A stretch of DNA of 64,000 nucleotides from an uncultured Candidatus Saccharibacteria bacterium (lineage in GTDB: Bacteria > Patescibacteriota > Minisyncoccia > Phycocordibacterales > UBA12088): contig CAZLUD010000001.1 of assembly GCA_964562615.1 (NCBI GenBank), positions 257,072-321,071 on the forward strand, written 5' to 3'. The notes beneath the pieces were generated by a model, which was given only the letters and a program-made list of their open reading frames with translations, did no database searches and was not told the DNA's origin. The position numbers were made by a program, and so were the translations under genes. Numbering within the stretch: the stretch's first letter is position 1; every line of letters starts with the position of its first letter. This document shows positions 3,009-42,101 of the stretch, in pieces.

Positions 3009-4205
3009 CTACTCTTCTTCTTGAAGTTTGCGAAGTGCCAATCCCACTGCAACAGCAAAATCTGGACCAGCACCTTTTAACACTTCTTCAAGAAATGCAG
3101 GTGACTGCACCTTTTGAAATGGATCCGCAAGCACCACCTCCATATCAAAGCGCTCCGCAGCAAAACCCTTTAATCCCTGAATTGATGCCCCGGCACCAGT
3201 AAATACTATTTTGTTTACATTTTTGTTATAGCGCTTTTGGTAGCTAAGGATAGAGCGCTTCGCCTCCGAAAATATAAATTCCATGGTGAGTTGCGCAGTT
3301 TGTGACACGCTCTTTCCGTCTGCTCCTGTCCCTGCGCCGAGTAGCCCAAGTTCGCGCTTCATTTTTTCGGCTTTATCTATTGGTATCCCCAATGATCGCG
3401 AGAGCGATAGAGTGATGTCTTGTGATCCTTTACTTATGATATGTGACACACGGACAATACCGTACTCAACCACATAGAGTTTGGTTGAAGATGCGCCGAT
3501 ATCTATAACGACAAATGGCGCCGTTCCCCTATCCATCACCGCTCTGATAGAGCTGAAAATTTCTATTTCAAAAAATGCTGGTTTTAATCCTGATAGGGTG
3601 AGTACCTCGGCATACTTGCGAAGCATTTCATTATGAATGGCAACAAGCAACACAGTGGTTGTGCTTGTTGGAACCTTTGGTGCTTGCTGTTGAGGAGTGG
3701 CGGCAGCAGGTCCAGAAATCTGCTCTGCCTTTTGCTCTGGTGAATCTTTTGAAAAAAATCTTGCGTCATCATTAGGAATAACAAACCAATCAAGCTGCAC
3801 CTCGGTTATAGGAACGGGGATATATTTGCGTGCTTCTATTGGGATCATTTTTGCCAGCTGCGTTTGATCAAGCGCTGGCATTTCGATAAGCGTGATAAGA
3901 CTTGAGGCAAATGGAACAGACACCCCGCAATCCATAGTGGTAACATTTGCTTCTTGCATCAAATCTTTGAGCGCCTCAGATAATTTGTCTGCGGGCAAAT
4001 TAGTAGAGCGACCTGTCTCAAGTGAAGCATACGGACCAAGCGCTATTTCGCCATACGTTTCAAGTAGTGCTACCCCCTTCTCTTTTCGTAGCTGTACTAC
4101 TTTTATAGATGAATTTCCGATATCAACGCCAAGCACACTCTTTCCAGCTGAACTGAAAAGTCCTGACCCGAGCGAACCAATTAATTTGGAAAACATTCCC
4201 GCCAT
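3009..4205 (-). CDS. pilM: Type IV pilus assembly protein PilM (actin-like ATPase fold)
   Basis: 398 aa; VLGVDIGNSSIKVVQL start typical of PilM/FtsA-like; precedes pilN/pilO. Confidence 0.8.
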   Translation of the reverse strand: MAGMFSKLIGSLGSGLFSSAGKSVLGVDIGNSSIKVVQLRKEKGVALLETYGEIALGPYASLETGRSTNLPADKLSEALKDLMQEANVTTMDCGVSVPFASSLITLIEMPALDQTQLAKMIPIEARKYIPVPITEVQLDWFVIPNDDARFFSKDSPEQKAEQISGPAAATPQQQAPKVPTSTTTVLLVAIHNEMLRKYAEVLTLSGLKPAFFEIEIFSSIRAVMDRGTAPFVVIDIGASSTKLYVVEYGIVRVSHIISKGSQDITLSLSRSLGIPIDKAEKMKRELGLLGAGTGADGKSVSQTAQLTMEFIFSEAKRSILSYQKRYNKNVNKIVFTGAGASIQGLKGFAAERFDMEVVLADPFQKVQSPAFLEEVLKGAGPDFAVAVGLALRKLQEEE

Positions 4206-6227: not shown

Positions 6228-6437
6228 TCAATCAATTACGTATGGTTTAGGGGTACAGGTATACACAAGAGCTATCCATTTATGTGTGGTGGTGTGGAAA
6301 GAAACTTCATCAAAAATAGTGCATATCACCCCGTCATTGTCAGCGCTATTTCGAATATGTCGCTTGGGAATAGCACAATCAAACGAGTCACTTGATCCAT
6401 GGTATACGTATGCATCATCTAGCTCTGACTGATGCAT
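6228..6437 (-). CDS. Hypothetical small protein (downstream of CDPS)
   Basis: 69 aa ORF 6 nt downstream of CDPS stop; Cys-containing; no recognised domain. Confidence 0.3.
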   Translation of the reverse strand: MHQSELDDAYVYHGSSDSFDCAIPKRHIRNSADNDGVICTIFDEVSFHTTTHKWIALVYTCTPKPYVID

Positions 6438-6443
6438 ATGTAT

Positions 6444-7175
6444 TTAATAGTCCTTTATCAATTGCCCAGCAACTGGCTTTTGTAAATAATCTTCAACCAG
6501 AACACAAAGCTGCCGAAGTTGTAATGTTGAGGCGCTGAAATATTTACCACCTCTTATATCAAGAACAAATTGGCTCATTCCACTATCGACGTAGGTCGGA
6601 TACAAAATCAAATTATACAATGTGTTATTCCAAAATATTCCACCCAGTAACGTTGGGAGTTCACTTATTATGTACCCCGCAAGCTTATCCCTATCTTCAT
6701 TTGATACCGTTACATCTCTAAGTTCAATGTATTTGTTAACAAAATAGAGTACCCGCTCTCGAAATGCGGTATTCGATGTATATTCTTCAGCAAGAATTTC
6801 TCTCAAATGATCATAGCCGCTATTTTTTATGTCACTCCAGAATATTATATGCGTGTTTGCTATATAGGTGGGATCATTCTCTTTTCGTGCAAGATTACGA
6901 ATTGCTTTATCAAACATTCCTTTTATTCCATAACCCTTTTGCTGCACTTTCTCTTCAGCCTCCTCTTTGCTTAATCCCCTAAAGACCATCCAGTTAATGA
7001 CATCAATATCATCAGCGATAAGTATGAGAGCGTTATCCTTTGAATGGTGATGTGCCCATTGCACATACCGCTCCGCGAGCTCGGGTGTAAGGAGCTTATT
7101 TCCTAAACTGATACCCACAAAAATATTGAATAGTTTTTTGTTTATTTCCTCCTCCGTAACATGAAAATATTGCAT
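6444..7175 (-). CDS. tRNA-dependent cyclodipeptide synthase (CDPS, AlbC family)
   Basis: 243 aa; N-terminal IFVGISLGN matches the AlbC catalytic-Ser motif (ALIGISAGN); GYIISELP matches the AlbC Y178/E182 region (Y..AEAP); later YPTYVD matches the Y202 region; size and Rossmann-like layout fit CDPS. Confidence 0.7.
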   Translation of the reverse strand: MQYFHVTEEEINKKLFNIFVGISLGNKLLTPELAERYVQWAHHHSKDNALILIADDIDVINWMVFRGLSKEEAEEKVQQKGYGIKGMFDKAIRNLARKENDPTYIANTHIIFWSDIKNSGYDHLREILAEEYTSNTAFRERVLYFVNKYIELRDVTVSNEDRDKLAGYIISELPTLLGGIFWNNTLYNLILYPTYVDSGMSQFVLDIRGGKYFSASTLQLRQLCVLVEDYLQKPVAGQLIKDY

Positions 7176-7277
7176 ATTGTTATATTAAAACATATTTACG
7201 CGTATGAATATGTGTTCGGTTCTCTACCAAAACCTGCTAGCGCAGTAAAAATCAATCTATATACTGCATGGTATACC

Positions 7278-7883
7278 ATGACAGAATTTTGGGAATCTAG
7301 CTTTCAAAGCAAGCACATGATGTGGGGTGAAAGGCCTGCAGACTGCGTACATGAGGTAGTTGCTTTATTCAAGGAGCAAGGAGTGAAGAATGTTCTTATA
7401 CCCGGCTATGGCTACGGCAGAAACGCCAAGCCATTTATTGATAGCGGATTTGATGTAACAGGGATTGAAATATCACAAACAGCAATTGATTTAGCAAAAA
7501 AACACTCAAGTAATGACATCCTGATTCATCACGGCTCTGTCAGTGCGATGCCATTTGATGACGTGCAGTATGGTGGGATCTTTTGTTATGGGCTAATCCA
7601 TTTATTAGCTAAAGAAGAGAGGGCAAAACTCATCAAGGATTGCTACCGTCAATTACTGCCAGGTGGGTATATGGTATTTGTGGCACTTTCTAAAAATGAT
7701 GCTTCATATGGACAAGGAAAAGAGCTTAGCAGCAACACATTCCTTATGCCGTATGGGGTTACCCTTTTTTACTATGACGCTGATTCCATAAAAAATGAAT
7801 TTGAAGACCACACCATACTTGAGGCAAAAGAAATAAATGAGTCCTCAAGAAAATTTTGGCAGGTGACGTGTAAGAGAAATTGA
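7278..7883 (+). CDS. Class I SAM-dependent methyltransferase (candidate cyclodipeptide tailoring enzyme)
   Basis: Motif I VLIPGYGYGRNAKPFIDSGFDVTGIE, motif post-I/II (HHGSVSAMPFDD), LLPGGYMVF; start taken at internal ATG 7278 (MTEFWESS...); divergent from CDPS. Confidence 0.7.
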   Translation: MTEFWESSFQSKHMMWGERPADCVHEVVALFKEQGVKNVLIPGYGYGRNAKPFIDSGFDVTGIEISQTAIDLAKKHSSNDILIHHGSVSAMPFDDVQYGGIFCYGLIHLLAKEERAKLIKDCYRQLLPGGYMVFVALSKNDASYGQGKELSSNTFLMPYGVTLFYYDADSIKNEFEDHTILEAKEINESSRKFWQVTCKRN

Positions 7884-7911
7884 GAGTTATACCGTATGCA
7901 TATCATGGGTA

Positions 7912-8370
7912 ATGCATAACGACATGATAAAAAGAATTTCAATAGCATCTCTTCAAATAGCAGTTGTACTTATAGGCATAGTGGCATTCGCCATTATGAT
8001 CAGATTCCCTTTAACTGAAGGGCGGGCAATCAATTTGGATATATTTAGCATATACACTGATCCCCTCTTGATATATGAATACTTTGCATCAATGGCATTT
8101 TTTTATGCCTTGTATCAGACATACAAATTACTCGGATACATGCAACAGGATATGCTCTTTTCAAAACACTCTATTGATGCTCTCACAAAAATAAAATATA
8201 GCTCAATACTATTAAGTTTATTGATCATAGGAGCAGGCATATATGTACGGATATTTCACGCGCAAGACGATGATCCTGCAGGCTTCCTTGCGCTTTGTAT
8301 AGTAGCTATATTTGTGCTCAGCATCGTTGCTACTGTAGCGACAATGTTACAGAGAAGATTACGTCACTAG
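7912..8370 (+). CDS. Hypothetical 4-TM membrane protein (co-transcribed with methyltransferase)
   Basis: 152 aa with several hydrophobic helices; 29 nt downstream of MTase stop. Confidence 0.45.
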   Translation: MHNDMIKRISIASLQIAVVLIGIVAFAIMIRFPLTEGRAINLDIFSIYTDPLLIYEYFASMAFFYALYQTYKLLGYMQQDMLFSKHSIDALTKIKYSSILLSLLIIGAGIYVRIFHAQDDDPAGFLALCIVAIFVLSIVATVATMLQRRLRH

Positions 8371-33562: not shown

Positions 33563-34240
33563 TTATTTATCCTTGGTGACCGACAATTTTGCTTCAAGTG
33601 TTGAAATAGCGTTTTCTGCACCTACCACTACGACAAACTTATGGGTAAGTACATCAAGCACGTTAAGATTGCGGACTTCCTCTACTTCTACATTGCCAAA
33701 GTTACCAAAGCTTTTCTTTATGAAATCATTTTTTTCAGCAATAGCAACAAGGGCGGCATTTTTCTTTTTAGTTGCAAGATGCTCAAACCCCTTTACTGAA
33801 GCAAGAGCGAGTAGTAGATCCTTTGCTTCCTTAGTCTTTGGAGCGTTAAGTGAAAATTCGTCAACAAAGATAAGTTCACCGTCTTGATACTTTTGAGAAA
33901 GTGCAGTAAAGAGAGCCTTTACACGCATTTTCTTGTTTACTTTCTGTGAATAGTCCTTTTCGTTTCGAGGACCGTGTGCGATACCTCCCCCCTTCCATAT
34001 TGGAGATCTAATAGAACCATGGCGCGCTTGACCAGTACCCTTTTGCTTCCAAGGCTTTCTTCCTCCTCCGCGAACCTCGCTTCTGTCTTTGGTGTGAGCG
34101 GTAGAATTGCGAGCGTTAGCCTGTACTGCAAGCACTACCTGGTGCACAAGGTCGGCATTCCATGGCAAGCCGAACACGCTCTCGGGAAGTGTTACCTTTC
34201 CTGCTTCTTTCGCTTGCTTGTTGTATACGAGAGCTTCCAT
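33563..34240 (-). CDS. rplD: 50S ribosomal protein L4
   Basis: 225 aa; position. Confidence 0.9.
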   Translation of the reverse strand: MEALVYNKQAKEAGKVTLPESVFGLPWNADLVHQVVLAVQANARNSTAHTKDRSEVRGGGRKPWKQKGTGQARHGSIRSPIWKGGGIAHGPRNEKDYSQKVNKKMRVKALFTALSQKYQDGELIFVDEFSLNAPKTKEAKDLLLALASVKGFEHLATKKKNAALVAIAEKNDFIKKSFGNFGNVEVEEVRNLNVLDVLTHKFVVVVGAENAISTLEAKLSVTKDK

Positions 34241-34245
34241 AGTAA

Positions 34246-34869
34246 TTATGAGGTTTTTCTTATCTCTACAAGTGTGCCTGGTCTTCCTGGTACTGCGCCC
34301 TTAAGGTACAGCTTTCCTGCATCACTATCAATAGCAACCACAGTTAGGTTCTTTACTGTAACCCTATCAGAACCCATTCTTCCTGGCATTTTTCTACCTT
34401 TAAACACCTTTGCAGGGCCCTTTGCACCAATTGAACCAGGAGTACGAAAATCGTGCGCTCGGCCGTGAGAGCTTGGGTGACCTGAAAATCCATGACGCTT
34501 TACCACACCCTGAAAACCCTTTCCTTTTGTGGTTGCAGACACGGTAACCACATCACCTTCTTTGAGCATATCTGCGAGGGTAAGTACATCGCCAACGTTC
34601 ACATCAGCAGGTGCGTCATTTTTCATTCTGAACTCTACAAGATGTTCAAATGGGCCCTTTCCCTTAAGATGTCCCATTTCTGCCTTATTTACCTTTCTCT
34701 CTGCTTTAGTACCAAAACCAACCTGAATGGCGCTGTAGCCATCCTTTTCTGTGGTGCGGACTGCGGTAACGGTAACTGATGGTGCATACAGCACCGTAGA
34801 AGGGTGTACTTCACCCCCTTTACCGAATATCTGAGTCATTTTTTCTTTTTTTCCGAGTAGGAATTGCAT
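34246..34869 (-). CDS. rplC: 50S ribosomal protein L3
   Basis: Start at MQFLLGKKEKMTQIF... Confidence 0.85.
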   Translation of the reverse strand: MQFLLGKKEKMTQIFGKGGEVHPSTVLYAPSVTVTAVRTTEKDGYSAIQVGFGTKAERKVNKAEMGHLKGKGPFEHLVEFRMKNDAPADVNVGDVLTLADMLKEGDVVTVSATTKGKGFQGVVKRHGFSGHPSSHGRAHDFRTPGSIGAKGPAKVFKGRKMPGRMGSDRVTVKNLTVVAIDSDAGKLYLKGAVPGRPGTLVEIRKTS

Positions 34870-35113
34870 GTGAAATATATTGGCACAAAAAAACCCGTGC
34901 TGGACGGATGATTGCCTTACAAAAGGCATTCCTGTCCAGTGGTCCCTCTCAATACCTCTATTGGGGACATGGGACTTCTATATGAGAAGTGGTCACACTA
35001 TATACGAATATTCAAAAAACACAAATAGTAAGCATGTTGACACACGACTATGTATGTGTTGATATAACATCAGCACATACCCGCACCTCGGGGATCAGGG
35101 GTTTGGAGTTTAA

Positions 35114-35399
35114 CATGATCACACACGGCTTTTGTCCTATTTGCAATCAATTGGTTGAAGTAGTTGATTCGCATTTTGCACCCGATATTATCGAATCGAT
35201 TGAGGGGTGCTATTCAGTAACTGAACACAAACATGATGGATTGAGTTGCATCGGTACTGGATTATCGCCAAAATCTATCGAGGAAGATGATGATTGGCCG
35301 GAGGATCCACCTCCAGAGCCAAAAAACAATGACCTCGGTCCGGGGGTCGATCCCCTCGGAGAGGAGGAACCTCCTCACAGAAAGAGGATCCTCCCCTAG
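35114..35399 (+). CDS. Hypothetical small Cys-containing protein with acidic Pro-rich tail
   Basis: AGGGG RBS before ATG 35114; CPIC...C...C pattern; ends at the hairpin terminator in the first direct repeat. Confidence 0.3.
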
Positions 35400-35412
35400 A
35401 GTGGTGGCCGGT

Positions 35413-35483
35413 GCGAAACGCGCCGGCCACATCTTTTTATACCACTGACAAATTTTCACTTTTTAAAACAACAACACCGCCCT
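35413..35483 (+). repeat. 71-bp direct repeat, copy 1 (1 mismatch with copy 2)
   Basis: gcgaaacgcgccggccacatctttttataccactgaCaaattttcactttttaaaacaacaacaccgccct; identical but for one base to 36908-36978. Confidence 0.85.
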
Positions 35484-35638
35484 CGAGCGCCCTTCCCTCC
35501 GCTCCGCAACCCGAGCGAAGATCAAGAAGCTCATACGTGACAATTCAACTCGATCGATGCGTTCAAATTACTTGTGAGCTTCGTACGCCTTACGAGGTGG
35601 TGCGACAGGTGTCGCGGTAGTCAATTTGAGTGCCTTAG

Positions 35639-36226
35639 TTAAAATACATCGCGGGCGATTATTATCATTGTTGAAACCAAGCCAAATAAGAAGAACAGGT
35701 ATGAAATCGGCAGTAGCGCAAGACTATTCTCACAAATTACATTTGCATGTGATGCCAACCATCCCTGAAAATTTCTCTTGAAGACAATTTTTTCATCCAT
35801 TTTTTCAAAAGTTGAACGAAAAAATTCAATATGTCCTTTTTCTTTTTTTACAAAACCTCTTACTATCTCCCGATACAAATCCATAAACCCATCAATCACA
35901 CAAAACAAACCGACCGAAAGAAAGCCAAGCACAAAAAAACATATTGGTGCCACTAATTCAAATCGTATGCTCATTTCGTTGATAAACAACTGGGCATACA
36001 TGGTAACCGCAATAATCAACGCAGAACCATTTGCTTTGAAGGAATATTTAATAACAAGATCATTCAATGGGTCGCGTTTTTCCATGTATTCATTTTTAAC
36101 CGCATTGTTGTTCATAAAAAGGTGCACCACGACTTGGGTGAGAAGCTCGCCAGCACCTATGTGTCCGGCAGGGACTTGGTAGTTCCCATTCTGATACTTG
36201 CTATGTGAATGGATTCTCGATTTCAA
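35639..36226 (-). CDS. Hypothetical 3-TM membrane protein, translationally coupled to the upstream CYTH gene
   Basis: 195 aa; start overlaps CYTH stop by 26 nt. Confidence 0.45.
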   Translation of the reverse strand: MKSRIHSHSKYQNGNYQVPAGHIGAGELLTQVVVHLFMNNNAVKNEYMEKRDPLNDLVIKYSFKANGSALIIAVTMYAQLFINEMSIRFELVAPICFFVLGFLSVGLFCVIDGFMDLYREIVRGFVKKEKGHIEFFRSTFEKMDEKIVFKRNFQGWLASHANVICENSLALLPISYLFFLFGLVSTMIIIARDVF

Positions 36227-36779
36227 ATGTAAAAGCCTTGAGAGTTTCCTTGTCGAGCTCGTCGAGAGTCTTGCCGTATTTCTGTTTGTAAATGCCGTTC
36301 ACTGTGTCGAAGATGGCATCCTGATAATCGAATCCGAGCTTTTGTGCAGCAGTTTTTACCACTTCCTCAGAAGAGCCTTCCAGTTCAACGTATGTATCAA
36401 GGAATGGCCATGTATCAATCGCAACCTCGACATCTCCAAGTAACCAAAGTTCGCGTCTGGATTCTTGGTAGGATTTACGCTCACACCCGATCGACTCAAG
36501 AAGTGCAACCGTGTCTCCTAAGTCGTTTACTTCAACGAGGATTTCTTTCTGTCCAGTAATCGTCTTTCCATCGACAGACTTGAGAGTAAGCGTCACTTTG
36601 TTCCCCTCGTCACGAACACGAAGCCATGTATTCGGATCCTGTTTCTCCTTCGGAAGTTCCAGAGTGACACGTCGTTGCATGTATTCTGGACGCACAAGAA
36701 TAGCGCCAAGAGCTTTGAGTGTCTGAGTCAAATCCTCCTTCTGTATATCAAGAAATGTCGCCTCGTATTCTGTCTTCAT
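36201..36779 (-). CDS. CYTH-domain protein (CyaB-like class IV adenylyl cyclase / triphosphate tunnel metalloenzyme family)
   Basis: 192 aa; N-terminal EYEATFLDI (CYTH ExExK-like start), WLRVRDEGNKVTLTLK beta-strand pattern, acidic residues spaced as in tunnel-fold enzymes. Confidence 0.6.
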   Translation of the reverse strand: MKTEYEATFLDIQKEDLTQTLKALGAILVRPEYMQRRVTLELPKEKQDPNTWLRVRDEGNKVTLTLKSVDGKTITGQKEILVEVNDLGDTVALLESIGCERKSYQESRRELWLLGDVEVAIDTWPFLDTYVELEGSSEEVVKTAAQKLGFDYQDAIFDTVNGIYKQKYGKTLDELDKETLKAFTFEIENPFT

Positions 36780-36907
36780 GATGCGATTATATTACAATTC
36801 GAACAGTTAAGGATGTCATTAGGCTATTGATCGATCGGTCTAGTTGTTCGATCAACAACATTCACTCTGAGGAGTGATATTTATTTTACCCTACCGTAGT
36901 GCTACCA

Positions 36908-36978
36908 GCGAAACGCGCCGGCCACATCTTTTTATACCACTGAAAAATTTTCACTTTTTAAAACAACAACACCGCCCT
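36908..36978 (+). repeat. 71-bp direct repeat, copy 2
   Basis: See copy 1; here followed by a perfect hairpin aaacaacaacaccgccc-tttc-gggcggtgttgttgttt that acts as the terminator for rpsJ on the minus strand. Confidence 0.85.
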
Positions 36979-37017
36979 TTCGGGCGGTGTTGTTGTTTGT
37001 CCTCACTTTGTTGTTTG

Positions 37018-37371
37018 CTACACCATCTTCACCTCAATGCTTACCCCAGAAGGCAAGGAGAGGTTGGTAAGTGCTTCAACAATTTTTTGTGAAGGATTCA
37101 CAATCTCAATAAGTCGTTTATGAACTCGCATTTCGAACTGTTCTCGCGCGTCCTTATGAACGAATGCGGCTCTATTAACGGTATATTTCTTAATCTCAGT
37201 CGGTAGCGGTACTGGACCTACCATCTTTGCATCAAAGCGAAGGGCGGTGTCCATTATTTGGCGTACCGATGCGTCAAGCACCTTATTTTCATACGCGCGC
37301 ACACGAATGCGAAGACGTGGTTCACTTGCGTGCGTGCTTTTTTCTTTTTTTGCTTTTTTAGCGGTTGTCAT
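37018..37371 (-). CDS. rpsJ: 30S ribosomal protein S10 (N-terminal basic extension)
   Basis: RLRIRVRAYEN...GPVPLPTE...VNRAAFVHKDAREQFEMRVHKRLIEIV... Confidence 0.85.
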   Translation of the reverse strand: MTTAKKAKKEKSTHASEPRLRIRVRAYENKVLDASVRQIMDTALRFDAKMVGPVPLPTEIKKYTVNRAAFVHKDAREQFEMRVHKRLIEIVNPSQKIVEALTNLSLPSGVSIEVKMV

Positions 37372-37400
37372 GGTGCAAAGCGCGTGAGCGCACTATGTTA

Positions 37401-38597
37401 CTAGGCGACGATCTTGGTGACCACTCCAGCGCCGACGGTCTTACCACCCTCACGGATAGCAAAACGCTGTTGTTCTTCAAGGGCAATTGCGGCAACAAGC
37501 TTTACCTTAAAGGTAACGGTATCGCCCGGCATAACCATTTCTACACCCTCCTTGAGTGTTACCTCGCCGGTAACGTCAGTGGTTCGAACATAGAACTGTG
37601 GCTTGTATCCAGTGAAGAATGGTGTGTGACGACCTCCTTCCTCTTTTTTAAGGATGTATACCTCTGATTCAAACTCTGTGTGTGGAGTAACAGAACCAGA
37701 CTTTGCAAGCACCTGACCTCGGTGTACATCTTCTTTTTTAGTACCTCGAAGAAGAATACCTGCGTTGTCTCCTGCCTGACCTTCTTGTAGTTGCTTGTTG
37801 AACATTTCAACTCCAGTAACCGTAGTCTTAGCGGTAGGAGCCATACCAACAATTTCTACTTCTTCACCTACCTTAACTACACCTCGCTCAATACGGCCGG
37901 TAACTACTGTTCCGCGACCTTCAATTGAGAAGATGTCTTCGATTGGCATAAGGAATGGCTTTTCGATTTCTCGAACTGGCATTGGGAAGTATTCATCCAT
38001 TGCCGTTACAAGCTCAACAACCTTTTCGCTCCATGGACCCTTTGGATCCTCAAGCGCCTTAAGACCTGAACCCTTGATAACAGGAGTGTTTTTACCATCA
38101 AATCCGTTTGCATCAAGAAGCTCTCGGATTTCTTCTTCTACAAGCATTACCATTTCTTCATCATCTACCATGTCTACCTTGTTGATGAATACGATAATCT
38201 TTGGCACACCTACTTGGCGTGCAAGGAGTACGTGCTCACGAGTTTGTGGCATCATACCGTCGGTTGCTGCTACCACGAGCACTGCGCCGTCCATCTGAGC
38301 GGCACCAGTAATCATGTTTTTGATGTAGTCGGCGTGACCTGGGGCATCAATGTGTGCGTAGTGACGACTCTTTGTCCAATACTCACTGTGCGAAAGCGAA
38401 ATAGTAATACCACGCGCCTTTTCTTCTGGCGCCTTATCAATATCATCTACTCCCTTTACGGTAGCTCCGTAGTCGCCTCCTCGGGCGTTAAGGGTGTTGA
38501 GAATCGCAGCCGTAAGCGTAGTCTTGCCGTGGTCAACGTGACCAATGGTTCCTACGTTTATGTGCGGTCTCGAGCGATCAAACTCTGCTGCTGCCAT
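37401..38597 (-). CDS. tuf: Elongation factor Tu
   Basis: [25 protein letters not shown] motifs. Confidence 0.95.
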
Positions 38598-38914
38598 ATA
38601 ATTGTAGCTTAACGCTGATAATAAAGGCTGTTTTCAGATGAAGGCGCGAGAACACCTCCTCGTCTAAAAACGGCACACTGCTTGCGCAACGAGACAACCT
38701 TGAGCATTAAGCACACAATTATTGTTAAGGTGCACAGAAAACTAAGGCGCAACGTGCGGTACATCGGAGTATAGAGGGAGAAAGCCAATAGGTCAAGCGG
38801 GGTTTGTTTATTACAACAACCAAACCATGGCTTACTTGACTAATATTTATAATCGTGTTATATTTTATAAAGCAAAGAGGGAGGGGTCCCTACACACTAA
38901 CCTAGGAGATCCCT

Positions 38915-39505
38915 ATGGATTCGTATGCTTTTGCTTTTTTTCCTGCTTCATTGCTTGCGTGCCTATTTTTAGGCATTAAGTGGTGGCAGGCGAAACGTGA
39001 GATAGCCCGCCTTGTGGGCGAACTCACGGAAGACACCTTCACACCTCCCCTTCTGAACAAGAGAGGATTTTTTTTGAAAGGGCAAAGGGTGTACGAGCGC
39101 GAAGTGCGCCTGAGACATGAAGGTCGAGTAGGTATCGCCTGCTTTGATCTTGTAGGTTTCAAGAGGGTTAACGATGAGAAGGGGCACAAAGTTGGCGACA
39201 ACGTGCTCAAGCTTTTCGCTCGACTCCTTGACGCGCATTTTCGAGTATCCGACATCCTCGCCCACCTAAGTGGGGACGAGTTCGCGGGAATCTTCCCGCG
39301 AATGGAGGAAGAGGTTCTCCACCGCAAATGCTCAGCGCTTGTCGCTGAATTTGAGCGCCGAACTCTTGAGGAGTTTGGTATCAAAGTCAGCGCGAGGTTT
39401 TGCGCATTGAGTTTTTGTGGCAGTAACATCGACACATCCCTTGAAGGGCTACTTGTTTTAGCCGATGAAGGGATGATCGCAAAGAGACAAGGAGAAAGGA
39501 GGTAA
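38915..39505 (+). CDS. Membrane-anchored minimal GGDEF-domain protein (SGDEF variant)
   Basis: N-terminal TM; FDLVGFKRVNDEKGHKVGDNVL, LSGDEFAGIF, ...LLVLADEGMIAKRQG; higher GC than surroundings; own terminator at 39514-39537. Confidence 0.65.
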   Translation: MDSYAFAFFPASLLACLFLGIKWWQAKREIARLVGELTEDTFTPPLLNKRGFFLKGQRVYEREVRLRHEGRVGIACFDLVGFKRVNDEKGHKVGDNVLKLFARLLDAHFRVSDILAHLSGDEFAGIFPRMEEEVLHRKCSALVAEFERRTLEEFGIKVSARFCALSFCGSNIDTSLEGLLVLADEGMIAKRQGERR

Positions 39506-39513
39506 CACGAAGG

Positions 39514-39537
39514 CGGGCGCGCAAGCGCCCGCCTTTC
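39514..39537 (+). terminator. Terminator after the GGDEF gene
   Basis: aggcgggcgc-gcaa-gcgcccgcct then ttctc. Confidence 0.5.
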
Positions 39538-39882
39538 TCATTGGCACCCCGCCACCACCTTTCCACTACCATCAACCACTTCCCCTACACGCAAATACAC
39601 GCCTTGATGGCGTGTATTGCTATGCTATACCCTCTCTTTATTATCCCAGAAGGAGATAAAACTGCGCGAACATCACCGTCGTGCTTGCAAAAAGTCCAGT
39701 CGTAAAGACCGCAAACATTTTTTGATCAAGCTCGTAAAGCTCACCTAGTGCCTGTTTCATATTGCTGATACAAAGCTACTAATAAGCAACAAAAAATGCG
39801 CCTCCTTAGCGCTGGTGTGTACCGCACAATCCCTTGTGCTTATAGAGTATACACCTACCCCATAGATATGCACGTAAAGTTA

Positions 39883-39915
39883 TACACACAAAAGCCCGCA
39901 ACTTGTTGCGGGCTT
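39883..39915. terminator. Bidirectional terminator downstream of fusA
   Basis: aaaagcccgcaac-ttgt-tgcgggctttt. Confidence 0.6.
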
Positions 39916-39935
39916 TTGTGTGTCGTTAGTATTGC

Positions 39936-42101
39936 TTACGCCTTTACTCCACCTCTCTTTTTGATGATATCCATAGCCACATTTGGTGGTACTGGTTGGT
40001 ATGAGCTGAACTCCATCGTCCAGTTACCACGTCCTTCTGTAAGGGAGCGTAGGGTGGTGGTGTACCCAAACATTTCTGAAAGAGGTACCTTTGCATGAAT
40101 AGCTTGATTCATACCACGCGCTTCCATACCTTCAATTTGTCCACGCTTTGATGATAGGTGTCCGTTAATATCACCCATGAATTGCTCTGGGATAACTACC
40201 TCAACATTCATGATCGGCTCAAGAATAATTGGTGTAGCTTTTCTTGTTGCCTCTTGGAATGCTTGTGACGCGGCAATTTTGAAAGCGATTTCTGATGAGT
40301 CAACATCGTGATATGAACCATCGTACAAGTCTACCGATACGTCCACCACTTTGTACCCAGCCTGAATACCTCTATCCATTGCTTCTCTAAAGCCTTTTTC
40401 ACACGCAGGGATATACTCTTGTGGAATCACTCCTCCCTTGATGCTGTTGATGAACTCAAAGTGTGCCTCACGCTTTACCGCCTTTGGAAGATCTTTGATT
40501 TCTTCTTCAGATAGCACAGTCATCGGCTTTACCTTTATCTTTACGTGACCATACTGACCACGACCACCTGTTTGTTTGATGTATTTAACTTCAGCATCTG
40601 CAGGATTCTGAATAGTTTCTCGGTAGGTAACCTGAGGTGCTCCAACATTAGCCTCAACGTTAAACTCGCGCTTCATTCTGTCTACCAAAATATCTAGGTG
40701 AAGCTCACCCATACCTGAGATGATAGTCTCGCCAGTTTCTTCATCACTTGAAACTCTAAAGGTTGGGTCTTCATCTGAAAGACGCCTAAGCGCAACTGAG
40801 AGTTTTTCTTGATCTTGCTTTGTTTTAGGTTCAATACGAAGCGATACCACTGGTTCAGGGAACTTAATTTCTTCAAGGATAATTGGGCGGTTTTCATCAC
40901 AGAGGGTGTCTGAGGTCTTTGTGTCTTTAAGACCCACTGTTGCCGCAATATCACCAGCGCGAACTTCTTGTACATCTTCTCGCTTGTCTGCCATAAGACG
41001 AACCATACGAGAAAGGCGCTCTCGCTGACCAGTACGTGAGTTAAGCACGTATGATCCTGCTTGCATGGTTCCTGAGTACACTCGGAAGAATGTGAGCGCG
41101 CCTACATACGGATCAGTCTGGATTTTAAATGCAAGTGCTGCAAACGGTTCATCGTCTGATGATGGCCGTGGCTCAATTTCGCCTGTTTTTGGACTTATAC
41201 CAATCATTGCAGGAACTTCAAGTGGTGATGGGAGATAGTCAACAACACCGTCAAGAACTAGCTGTACGCCCTTATTCTTTAGCGCAGATCCGGTAAATAC
41301 AGGGAAAATCTTATTTGCGATAACTGCCTTTCGGAGAGTCTTCTTTATATCTTCATTGGTAGGCTCTACCCCATCGAGGTACGCAGTCATAAGTGCATCA
41401 TCATGCTCTACCACCTTTTCAATAAGCTCCGCTCTGTAGGCTGTTGCCATTTCTTTAAGCTCTTCAGGTATCTCGTGCTCAGTTACCTCCATACCCATAT
41501 TGCCTTCAAAGGTGTACGCCTTCATCTTGATAAGGTCTACAACACCAACATGATGCTCTTCTTCGCCCCATGGAATTTGTACTCGTACCGCATTTGGTGA
41601 AAGACGCTTTAGGATGCTATCAAATGATCGCTCAAAGCTTGCGCCTGTTCTGTCCAGCTTGTTAATGAAACAGATTCTTGGTACGTGTGCATCTTCTGCG
41701 TAACGCCAGTTTGTTTCTGATTGTGGCTCTACTCCTGCTACACCATCAAATACCACAATCGCGCCATCGAGTACGCGCATAGAGCGCTGTACCTCAGCGG
41801 TAAAGTCAATGTGACCTGGGGTATCAATAATGTTAAACGCGGTTCTTGATGCCTTGTCTTCCTTATTTGGAACATCGGTTTTAACCCACGAGCATGAGAT
41901 AGCTGCAGCGGTAATAGTAATACCGCGCTCTCGCTCTTGTTCCATCCAGTCGGTTACGGTAGCACCTTCGTGCACTTCTCCGATTTTGTGGCTTTCACCA
42001 GTATAAAAAAGTATGCGCTCTGAGGTGGTTGTTTTTCCTGCGTCAATATGGGCAATAATGCCAAAATTACGTAGTTTATCTAATGGATACTGCCTTGCCA
42101 T
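39936..42101 (-). CDS. fusA: Elongation factor G
   Basis: [23 protein letters not shown]; 721 aa. Confidence 0.95.

Follow-up and report, generated by a model that had tools for sequence, protein, structure and literature searches.

In archaea, a break is known between S10, which ends the str/tuf unit, and L3, which heads a separate operon. Small triphosphate tunnel metalloenzymes (TTMs) of the CYTH family are represented by archaeal proteins such as SaTTM from Sulfolobus acidocaldarius and PH1012 from Pyrococcus, and the cyclases of the Pycsar and CBASS defence systems belong to other families, being CD-NTases or, in the case of PycC, of the class III type. We analyzed a stretch of 64,000 nt (the window; contig CAZLUD010000001.1, positions 257,072 to 321,071 of the forward strand) from an uncultured Candidatus Saccharibacteria bacterium, in which a gene for a CYTH-domain protein and an open reading frame (ORF) for a small membrane protein lie between rpsJ (S10) and rplC (L3). 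An earlier note on this DNA had read the two as a possible cyclase and membrane effector, recently inserted into a conserved operon. Our verdict is that the CYTH gene is an ordinary, conserved solo gene of its clade that was relocated together with an orphan gene into a soft spot particular to the lineage, and we consider a young gene insertion, and not a functional two-gene module, to be the likely explanation of the locus.

Protein matches put the organism in the Patescibacteria (names in the sources include Minisyncoccota and Kaiserbacteria, and loci related by S10 are labelled Paceibacterota). Natural transformation and homologous insertion between convergent ORFs have been documented in Patescibacteria, and a convergent-ORF site has been used as a neutral site for engineered insertions (PMC10633639). 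Ribosomal protein genes and tuf are among the horizontally acquired regions reported for Patescibacteria, with no hotspot described (PMC12455944). In the literature we found nothing on CYTH proteins in Patescibacteria or on interruption of the S10/L3 junction.

The nearest relative carries an empty site

A scan of species-representative genomes for S10 returned 80 loci (L013-L092). The nearest relative was L013 (CAYPBQ010000002.1), whose proteins are 99% (fusA), 100% (tuf), 100% (S10), 99% (L3) and 98% (L4) identical to those of the window and whose flanking DNA is 91-95% identical. The distance from rpsJ to rplC in the window was ~2.15 kb, both genes being confirmed by Pfam, which agrees with the separation of ~2.1 kb given in the earlier note; all ribosomal genes in the window are on the minus strand. 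The interval and its borders contain the following features.

37018-37371, minus strand: rpsJ (S10), Pfam PF00338 at 1.7e-31, from the ORF list
36961-36998, no strand assigned: hairpin after the rpsJ stop, an inverted repeat with a perfect 17-bp stem (AAACAACAACACCGCCC-TTTC-GGGCGGTGTTGTTGTTT), TTTTAAAAA next on the minus strand
36908-36978, no strand assigned: direct repeat copy 2 (S10 side), 71 nt, continuous with the S10 flank of L013
36201-36779, minus strand: CYTH/TTM gene, 192 amino acids, PF01928
35639-36115, minus strand: orphan membrane-protein ORF, 158 amino acids from ATG, at most 195 from TTG 36226
35484-36907, minus strand: inserted segment of 1,424 bp with the CYTH gene, the membrane-protein ORF and non-coding flanks, delimited by blastn, three-way alignment and tblastn against L013
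35413-35483, no strand assigned: direct repeat copy 1 (L3 side), 71 nt, continuous with the small-ORF/L3 flank of L013
35404-35430, plus strand: hairpin with T-run, 12-bp stem, 5 nt past the stop of the small ORF, from a terminator scan
35115-35399, plus strand: small Cys-containing gene, 94 amino acids, convergent with rpsJ
34246-34869, minus strand: rplC (L3), Pfam PF00297 at 1.1e-16, heading the rplC-rplD-rplW-rplB... unit

The S10-L3 gap of L013 is 658 nt long with a small reverse ORF as its sole content, and tblastn found neither the CYTH gene nor the membrane-protein ORF in L013. By blastn, L013 5976-6463 matched window 37396-36908 at 95.5% and L013 6392-7079 matched window 35484-34800 at 88.9%. 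These two matches overlapped by 72 nt in L013, corresponding to the 71-nt repeat, which is single-copy there and double in the window. The window equals an L013-type site plus the 1,424-bp insert and a 71-bp target duplication, with the insert placed exactly between two convergent terminators. Because L013 is an exact empty site with the 71 bp in single copy, a recent insertion in this lineage, as the earlier note had proposed, is supported. Of the ~2.1 kb that it had described as foreign-looking, 1,424 bp are the insert; the small gene was there before and is also found in L013. Likewise, the 71-bp direct repeats that it had noted are real (70/71 identical), but they bracket the CYTH and membrane-protein unit and not the whole gap, the small plus-strand gene lying outside. 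Six independent assemblies contain the filled arrangement, of which two are NCBI metagenomes, one comes from a JGI sample and three from Logan runs, and since all have the same junctions it is not the product of a chimeric assembly.

As to the direction of the event, we infer an insertion here and not a deletion in L013. Between the two repeat copies there is 1 mismatch in 71 positions, and between each copy and L013 there are 3-4, which fits a duplication younger than the split from L013, small as these numbers are. It is very unlikely that the filled arrangement is ancestral and that L013 lost the cassette. Recombination between the 71-bp repeats would leave exactly the L013 structure, and a single close relative is available for comparison; however, CYTH was found in none of the other S10-L3 gaps among 72 relatives, the nearest CYTH orthologues are all elsewhere, beside greA or a tRNA gene, each repeat copy is closer to the other than to L013, and the repeat itself would still need an earlier insertion with duplication.

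The direct repeat and its hairpins

The two repeat copies have a period of 1,495 nt and are the only occurrences in the whole 64 kb, where 0 matches are expected by chance. The exact 34-nt core of the repeat gave 0 matches in metagenome_contigs and viral_contigs. The hairpin at 36961-36998 is presumed to be the rpsJ terminator and that at 35404-35430 the plus-strand terminator of the small ORF. Copy 1 has the small-ORF hairpin and T-run whole and one arm of the 17-bp rpsJ hairpin, while in copy 2 the rpsJ hairpin is whole and the small-ORF hairpin is half-replaced; both hairpins are intact in the empty site of L013. One edge of the duplication coincides with the rpsJ hairpin loop, and the other is 4 nt away from that of the small-ORF hairpin. 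An Rfam scan of 34000-40000 (E<=1) returned sub-threshold chance matches only, such as FinP at 28 bits over the hairpin against a gathering score of 45, so that no known RNA family accounts for the repeat. The idea that the duplication carries a promoter for rplC was rejected, as the extended -10-like TGGTATAAA within the repeat was not enriched in the window (8 found vs 6.4 expected). A scan with the sigma-70 consensus showed no convincing promoter for rplC or the cassette.

Polymorphism within the species clusters in copy 2 (window 36911-36959 compared with L005, L006 and L008). L005/L006 show eight differences from the window, six of which are in this copy; two of these six restore L013-like bases and one matches copy 1. 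The CYTH coding sequence showed no differences between the window and L005, L006 and L008. The clustering suggests gene conversion or recombination at the S10-L3 junction.

Direct repeats around a clean empty site would also be expected of a small mobilisable element, with the 71-bp repeats acting in the manner of attL/attR, a 1,495-bp circle being excised and re-integrating at the rpsJ terminator region, and recombination being either RecA-dependent (Campbell-type) or carried out by a recombinase supplied in trans. One contig, L009 (Logan SRR21875704), joins window 35413-35772 to 36907-35844 via the repeat in its copy-1 variant, with ~70 nt missing, and is a circular permutation of the cassette through the repeat. 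A second, independent duplication-flanked single-gene insert was detected at the rpsJ 3' end in L064, in which the last 21 nt of rpsJ and the terminator are duplicated (6325-6392 and 7198-7277) around a 234-amino-acid ORF without Pfam family directly after rpsJ, the second duplicate having 13 extra nt in the hairpin loop. The concentration of polymorphism in copy 2 and the presence of a transposase and a reverse transcriptase among the junction cargo of other genomes point the same way. Nevertheless, we regard such an element as unlikely. The cassette has two ORFs, neither of them a recombinase, and contains no integrase, transposase, relaxase or terminal inverted repeats, and our searches found the cassette, the membrane-protein gene and the repeat nowhere else. 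Duplication-flanked inserts at the S10-L3 junction were seen in the window and L064 alone; the close pairs L023/L047 and L043/L045 differ there by replacement without flanking repeats. Contigs L007 and L008 simply break at the repeat. L009 may represent a circle or tandem copy. It can equally be an assembly path in a low-coverage sample: at k=31, a de Bruijn graph could pass from one repeat copy to the other within the 36 nt that both share perfectly. We take it as a lead only.

A broader conjecture is that the rpsJ terminator region of Paceibacteria-type genomes is a preferred docking site for small cassettes without recombinase, which enter with ~70-bp target duplications edged at terminator hairpins and exit as circles between the repeats. 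We find this quite unlikely. If true, it would be an undescribed hairpin- or terminator-targeted route of gene capture in ultra-small bacteria, of which the CYTH and membrane-protein unit (with L009) and the insert of L064 would each be a snapshot.

The CYTH protein

The CYTH ORF matched PF01928 with 42.6 bits (cut-off 23.2, E 7.5e-11). An AlphaFold 2 (AF2) model of the protein (pLDDT 92.8, pTM 0.83) had 8 long strands, and this predicted structure showed the eight-stranded antiparallel beta-barrel tunnel fold, with a Foldseek probability of 1.00 to PH1012, SaTTM, YpAC-IV and thiamine triphosphatase (ThTPase). PH1012, SaTTM and YpAC-IV were matched at E 4e-12 to 1e-9, the archaeal proteins ranking first and the class IV adenylate cyclase and thiamine triphosphatase after them. 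In a profile search of PDB sequences, the best matches were SaTTM Saci_0718, Pfu-838710 and PH1012; the EYEATF segment lined up with EVEIKF/EIEVKF, the ExExK motif of the archaeal proteins, and the RxR, K and E residues also had aligned counterparts. E4, E6, R37, R54, R56, E58, K67, E79, R109, E110, D122, E132 and E134 were invariant in a 28-sequence alignment, and the tunnel-lining Arg/Lys and Glu/Asp residues align to equivalents in solved TTMs. Profile and structure searches thus agree on the CYTH identity that the earlier note had given to 36201-36779, and the acidic and basic tunnel residues on which it had made the claim depend are kept. Within the ExExK motif, the two glutamates (E4 and E6) are invariant and the lysine is replaced by threonine here and in most close homologues, being present in the distant P0082, P0095, P0103 and P0108.

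The score against TIGR00318, the CyaB equivalog model, was 35.7 bits, and since this is below the cut-off of 57.95 the protein is not a class IV adenylate cyclase by that test. We take it to be a CYTH/TTM enzyme and most likely a triphosphatase, judging from its sequence and model. In such an enzyme, the triphosphate would be held in the beta-barrel tunnel by the conserved Arg/Lys residues and the metals by the conserved Glu/Asp residues, leading to hydrolysis; cyclisation of ATP would be the less likely alternative. The protein would act as a housekeeping enzyme, independently of the neighbouring membrane-protein ORF.

Upstream of the CYTH ATG, alignment with relatives revealed a -10-like box, TGTAATATAAT, at 36786-36796 (minus strand), 6 nt from the ATG, with TGATATAAT at this place in relatives. 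This conserved TGnATATAAT box, which lies within a stretch of homology of 13-18 nt, suggests that CYTH is transcribed from a promoter of its own into a near-leaderless mRNA.

CYTH orthologues and their neighbourhoods

We found 340 CYTH homologues, essentially all in Patescibacteria. Orthologues with 42-90% identity occur as solo genes in 45 loci outside this species, none of which is near S10/L3, has a homologue of the membrane-protein ORF or pairs CYTH with any membrane partner. The usual order is tmk-X-greA-CYTH, with greA directly upstream in 15 loci at 54-88% identity (L001-3, L010-12, L093-95, L102, L105-107, L109 and L114). In every relative of 82-88% identity whose upstream flank was readable, CYTH was directly downstream of greA, followed by secE-nusG-rplK, an HD-like gene or an acetyltransferase. 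The greA gene is also upstream of CYTH in the 54%-identical L109 and L114, another 54% group has the order NUDIX-CYTH-DksA/TraR (L096/L097, the DksA/TraR-type gene encoding a zinc-finger protein), and in one relative of 90% identity a tRNA gene lies upstream. Both GreA and DksA work via the secondary channel of RNA polymerase, and the link of CYTH to them may be functional or a coincidence.

Homology of the insert to these relatives reaches from 13-18 nt before the CYTH ATG to the stop codon of the gene and no further. There was no tblastn match in the window for greA, secE, nusG, tmk or the HD-like neighbour, indicating that the ancestral CYTH locus is outside the window and that no remnants of it were carried with the insert. 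When the non-coding flanks of the insert and the membrane-protein region were compared by blastn with all fetched loci, no donor was found.

Two further observations concern the CYTH loci of other genomes. L011 has, just downstream of greA-CYTH-HD (7114-8094, minus strand), a 326-amino-acid ORF with a weak match to Zn_ribbon_recom (serine-recombinase C-terminal) that is not in its near-twin L010, so that the ancestral CYTH neighbourhood also borders mobile DNA. In L118, L119 and L125, which are more distant Patescibacteria, a pair of divergent CYTH genes, with 49% and 39% identity to the query, is found on opposite strands ~1.6 kb apart.

The membrane-protein ORF and the defence reading

The start of the membrane-protein ORF was placed at ATG 36115 in gene calls from three sources (NCBI, JGI and Logan), giving 158 amino acids and a distance of 86 nt from the CYTH stop. 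The 26-nt overlap with CYTH described in the earlier note requires the first in-frame TTG (36226) and 195 codons, and as the gene callers choose the ATG, the overlap and the translational coupling drawn from it are unsupported. Of the 195-amino-acid, three-segment protein that it had described, the hydrophobic ORF ending at 35639 stood, but the length from the called ATG is 158 amino acids, and two of the hydrophobic segments are strong while the third is weak. The G+C content of this ORF (34.8%) differs from that of CYTH (45.4%) and from the 44-48% of the ribosomal-protein genes, tuf and fusA around it, and the contrast between the two ORFs marks the insert as composite. An ORF from ATG of the same length occurred in 1/5,000 shuffles of the 717-nt region, and the ORF is probably a real gene. 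A search of 5.8 billion clusters and an exhaustive HMMER scan of 1.84 billion representative proteins returned only the match to itself. Scans of Pfam, NCBIfam, PADLOC and PHROGs detected no family or nucleotide-binding domain, a PHROGs match of E 0.003 to a protein of unknown function being marginal and disregarded.

These results bear on the reading that the CYTH protein is a nucleotide cyclase whose product activates the membrane protein downstream, the two forming a Pycsar- or CBASS-like abortive-infection pair on a defence islet. In its favour, the two ORFs have the same orientation and arrived in a single insert. Class IV adenylate cyclases belong to the CYTH family, and one of them, YpAC-IV, was matched by the structure search. 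The membrane-protein ORF is AT-rich and an orphan, as is often so for defence cargo. We nonetheless hold such a pair to be highly improbable. The pairing is found in one species, CYTH being solo and in housekeeping contexts in the 45 other loci; the presumed effector has no recognisable nucleotide-binding domain or family; the coupling would need the TTG start, which the gene callers passed over; the score against the CyaB equivalog model falls short of the cut-off; and the best matches in sequence and structure are archaeal TTMs of the triphosphatase type. PADLOC gave no match for CYTH, the membrane-protein ORF, the small ORF or the nearby GGDEF ORF. The module of cyclase and membrane effector favoured in the earlier note is thus not borne out, while the housekeeping triphosphatase that it had held in reserve, here a solo conserved gene with archaeal triphosphatase-type TTMs as best matches, is the better reading.

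Variability of the S10-L3 junction

The gap between S10 and L3 was surveyed in 72 relatives, with gaps corrected for unaligned gene ends except in the raw range. Raw gaps ranged from 6 nt to 5.8 kb and the corrected median was 162 nt; gaps exceeded 500 nt in 28/72 relatives (39%) and 1 kb in 19/72, and four further loci had no L3 within 6 kb of S10. By comparison, L3-L4 gaps were all <=135 nt and tuf-S10 gaps were <=150 nt in 72/78, and the fusA-tuf gap had a median of 1.3 kb. The cargo at S10-L3 differs from genome to genome and includes Pirin, DUF4395, DUF3141, HlyIII, aminotransferase IV, a sugar transferase, a DDE transposase (L027), a reverse transcriptase (L042), large surface proteins and many unknowns. 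The S10|L3 and fusA|tuf junctions are recurrent breakpoints with unrelated cargo in Paceibacteria-type genomes. The premise that S10 is directly followed by L3 at a conserved site does not hold as a rule in this clade; comparison of synteny did show that CYTH and the membrane-protein ORF are not uniformly present in relatives, as L013 is empty.

The remaining genes at and beyond the S10 end of the locus are as follows.

37401-38597, minus strand: tuf
38915-39505, plus strand: stand-alone GGDEF ORF between fusA and tuf, Pfam 4.9e-17
39936-42101, minus strand: fusA, upstream of tuf in the ribosomal gene run

The rpsJ gene begins 29 nt after tuf and is the last gene of the tuf-rpsJ unit. The start of rplC is most likely 34869, which gives 207 amino acids, as called in L004 and L005. 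The region 38966-39493, nearly the whole GGDEF ORF, has no blastn match in L013 despite flanks of 93-95% identity, and the ORF at that position in L013 (3870-4409) shares only 39% identity with it. Apparently an allele or a cassette has been replaced at this second variable junction. A 398-amino-acid ORF at 3009-4205, equal in length to tuf, proved to be unrelated to it.

The small plus-strand gene, given as 35114-35399 in the earlier note, exists, but its ATG is at 35115, with GGAG 8 nt upstream. Its orthologue P0123 in L013 is also 94 amino acids long, 80-82% identical and in the same place, and the small gene is older than the insertion. No family was found for it in Pfam, NCBIfam, PADLOC or PHROGs. 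The protein has a CPIC...C...C pattern and an acidic, Pro-rich tail, and the gene is known from this species and L013 alone, lying antisense between rpsJ and rplC in both.

A model of the insertion

We propose that in the background state rpsJ ended the tuf-rpsJ unit with its own hairpin terminator, rplC started a separate unit, and the small convergent gene was already between them. After the split from the nearest sequenced sister, a segment of 1,424 bp would have entered the spacer between the convergent terminators, duplicating 71 bp of the target with edges at or near both apical hairpin loops. Its cargo would have been the solo CYTH/TTM gene ordinary for the clade, with its own -10 box, and an orphan ORF, rich in AT, that encodes a small membrane protein. 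Two routes would leave the observed footprint: staggered breaks at both hairpin loops followed by capture and fill-in, or single-crossover integration of a circle bearing the 71-nt segment, for which the footprint would be identical. The site would tolerate such an event because an insertion between convergent terminators breaks no transcript, and S10-L3 is a recurrent soft spot for unrelated cargo in this clade.

Several points weigh against a young insertion of a housekeeping gene. Support for an insertion over a deletion comes from parsimony and from mismatch counts of 1 as opposed to 3-4 over 71 nt. These counts are low, and the likeness of the repeat copies could also be due to gene conversion. 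CYTH may have been moved, copied or imported, the nearest known CYTH DNA being only 77% identical, and the 71-bp target duplication has no demonstrated known mechanism. The junction in L009, in which the end of the cassette is joined to its start through the repeat, would not be predicted by a purely passive insertion. The lack of homologues of the membrane protein does not disprove a functional link to CYTH. Finally, with threonine in place of the ExExK lysine, proteins of this subfamily may have an activity other than that of the characterised TTMs.

A CYTH gene beside a membrane-protein ORF in a ribosomal cluster mimics a defence islet, and comparison with relatives turns it into a relocated housekeeping gene. 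The pair of filled and empty sites, resolved to the base pair, documents gene movement in an uncultured Patescibacterium, and the 71-bp target duplication is unusually long and bounded by two terminator hairpins. The S10|L3 and fusA|tuf breakpoints bear on the use of syntenic ribosomal protein blocks in binning and phylogeny of these organisms, and both junctions could be natural neutral sites for engineering them. The analysis also points to a well-conserved Patescibacteria subfamily of CYTH proteins, usually linked to greA and without the motif lysine.

Comparison with known systems

With Pycsar and CBASS the locus has in common a gene of a nucleotide-processing family followed by a small membrane ORF on the same strand, in recently acquired DNA. 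It differs from them in that Pfam, NCBIfam and PHROGs recognise no sensor domain in the would-be effector, the two genes are not paired in other genomes and PADLOC finds no match. Like an integrative mobile element, the cassette is flanked by direct repeats and has an empty counterpart site in a relative; unlike one, it has no recombinase of its own and no second copy that we could find. The position of the insert exactly between convergent terminators, with a duplicated stretch of target on both sides, is like that of neutral-site or Campbell-type insertions; here no recombinase is present, and transposons duplicate far less of their target than 71 bp.

The class IV adenylate cyclases (CyaB; Yersinia pestis AC-IV, 2fjt/3n10) share the CYTH fold with the window protein (Foldseek E ~1e-9), which JGI labels 'adenylate cyclase class 2', but identity is 14-15% and the TIGR00318 score is below its cut-off. 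The best matches in both sequence and structure are the small archaeal TTMs (SaTTM Saci_0718, 7ns8; PH1012, 2dc4; Pfu-838710, 1yem), with profile E-values of 2.9e-9 to 7e-7, Foldseek E-values of 4e-12 to 1e-9 and TM-scores of 0.66-0.77. These too are single-domain proteins of ~170-190 amino acids, and their ExE, RxR, Lys and distal Glu/Asp tunnel residues align with those of the window protein. They differ in that identity is 20-24%, in that the ExExK lysine is threonine in the Patescibacteria subfamily, and in that the window protein has an extra helical C-terminal tail of ~40 residues. The gene order also resembles the archaeal type, as a terminator closes the tuf-rpsJ unit and rplC heads a unit of its own; here, however, the organism is a bacterium and the break is filled by cargo that varies between close relatives.

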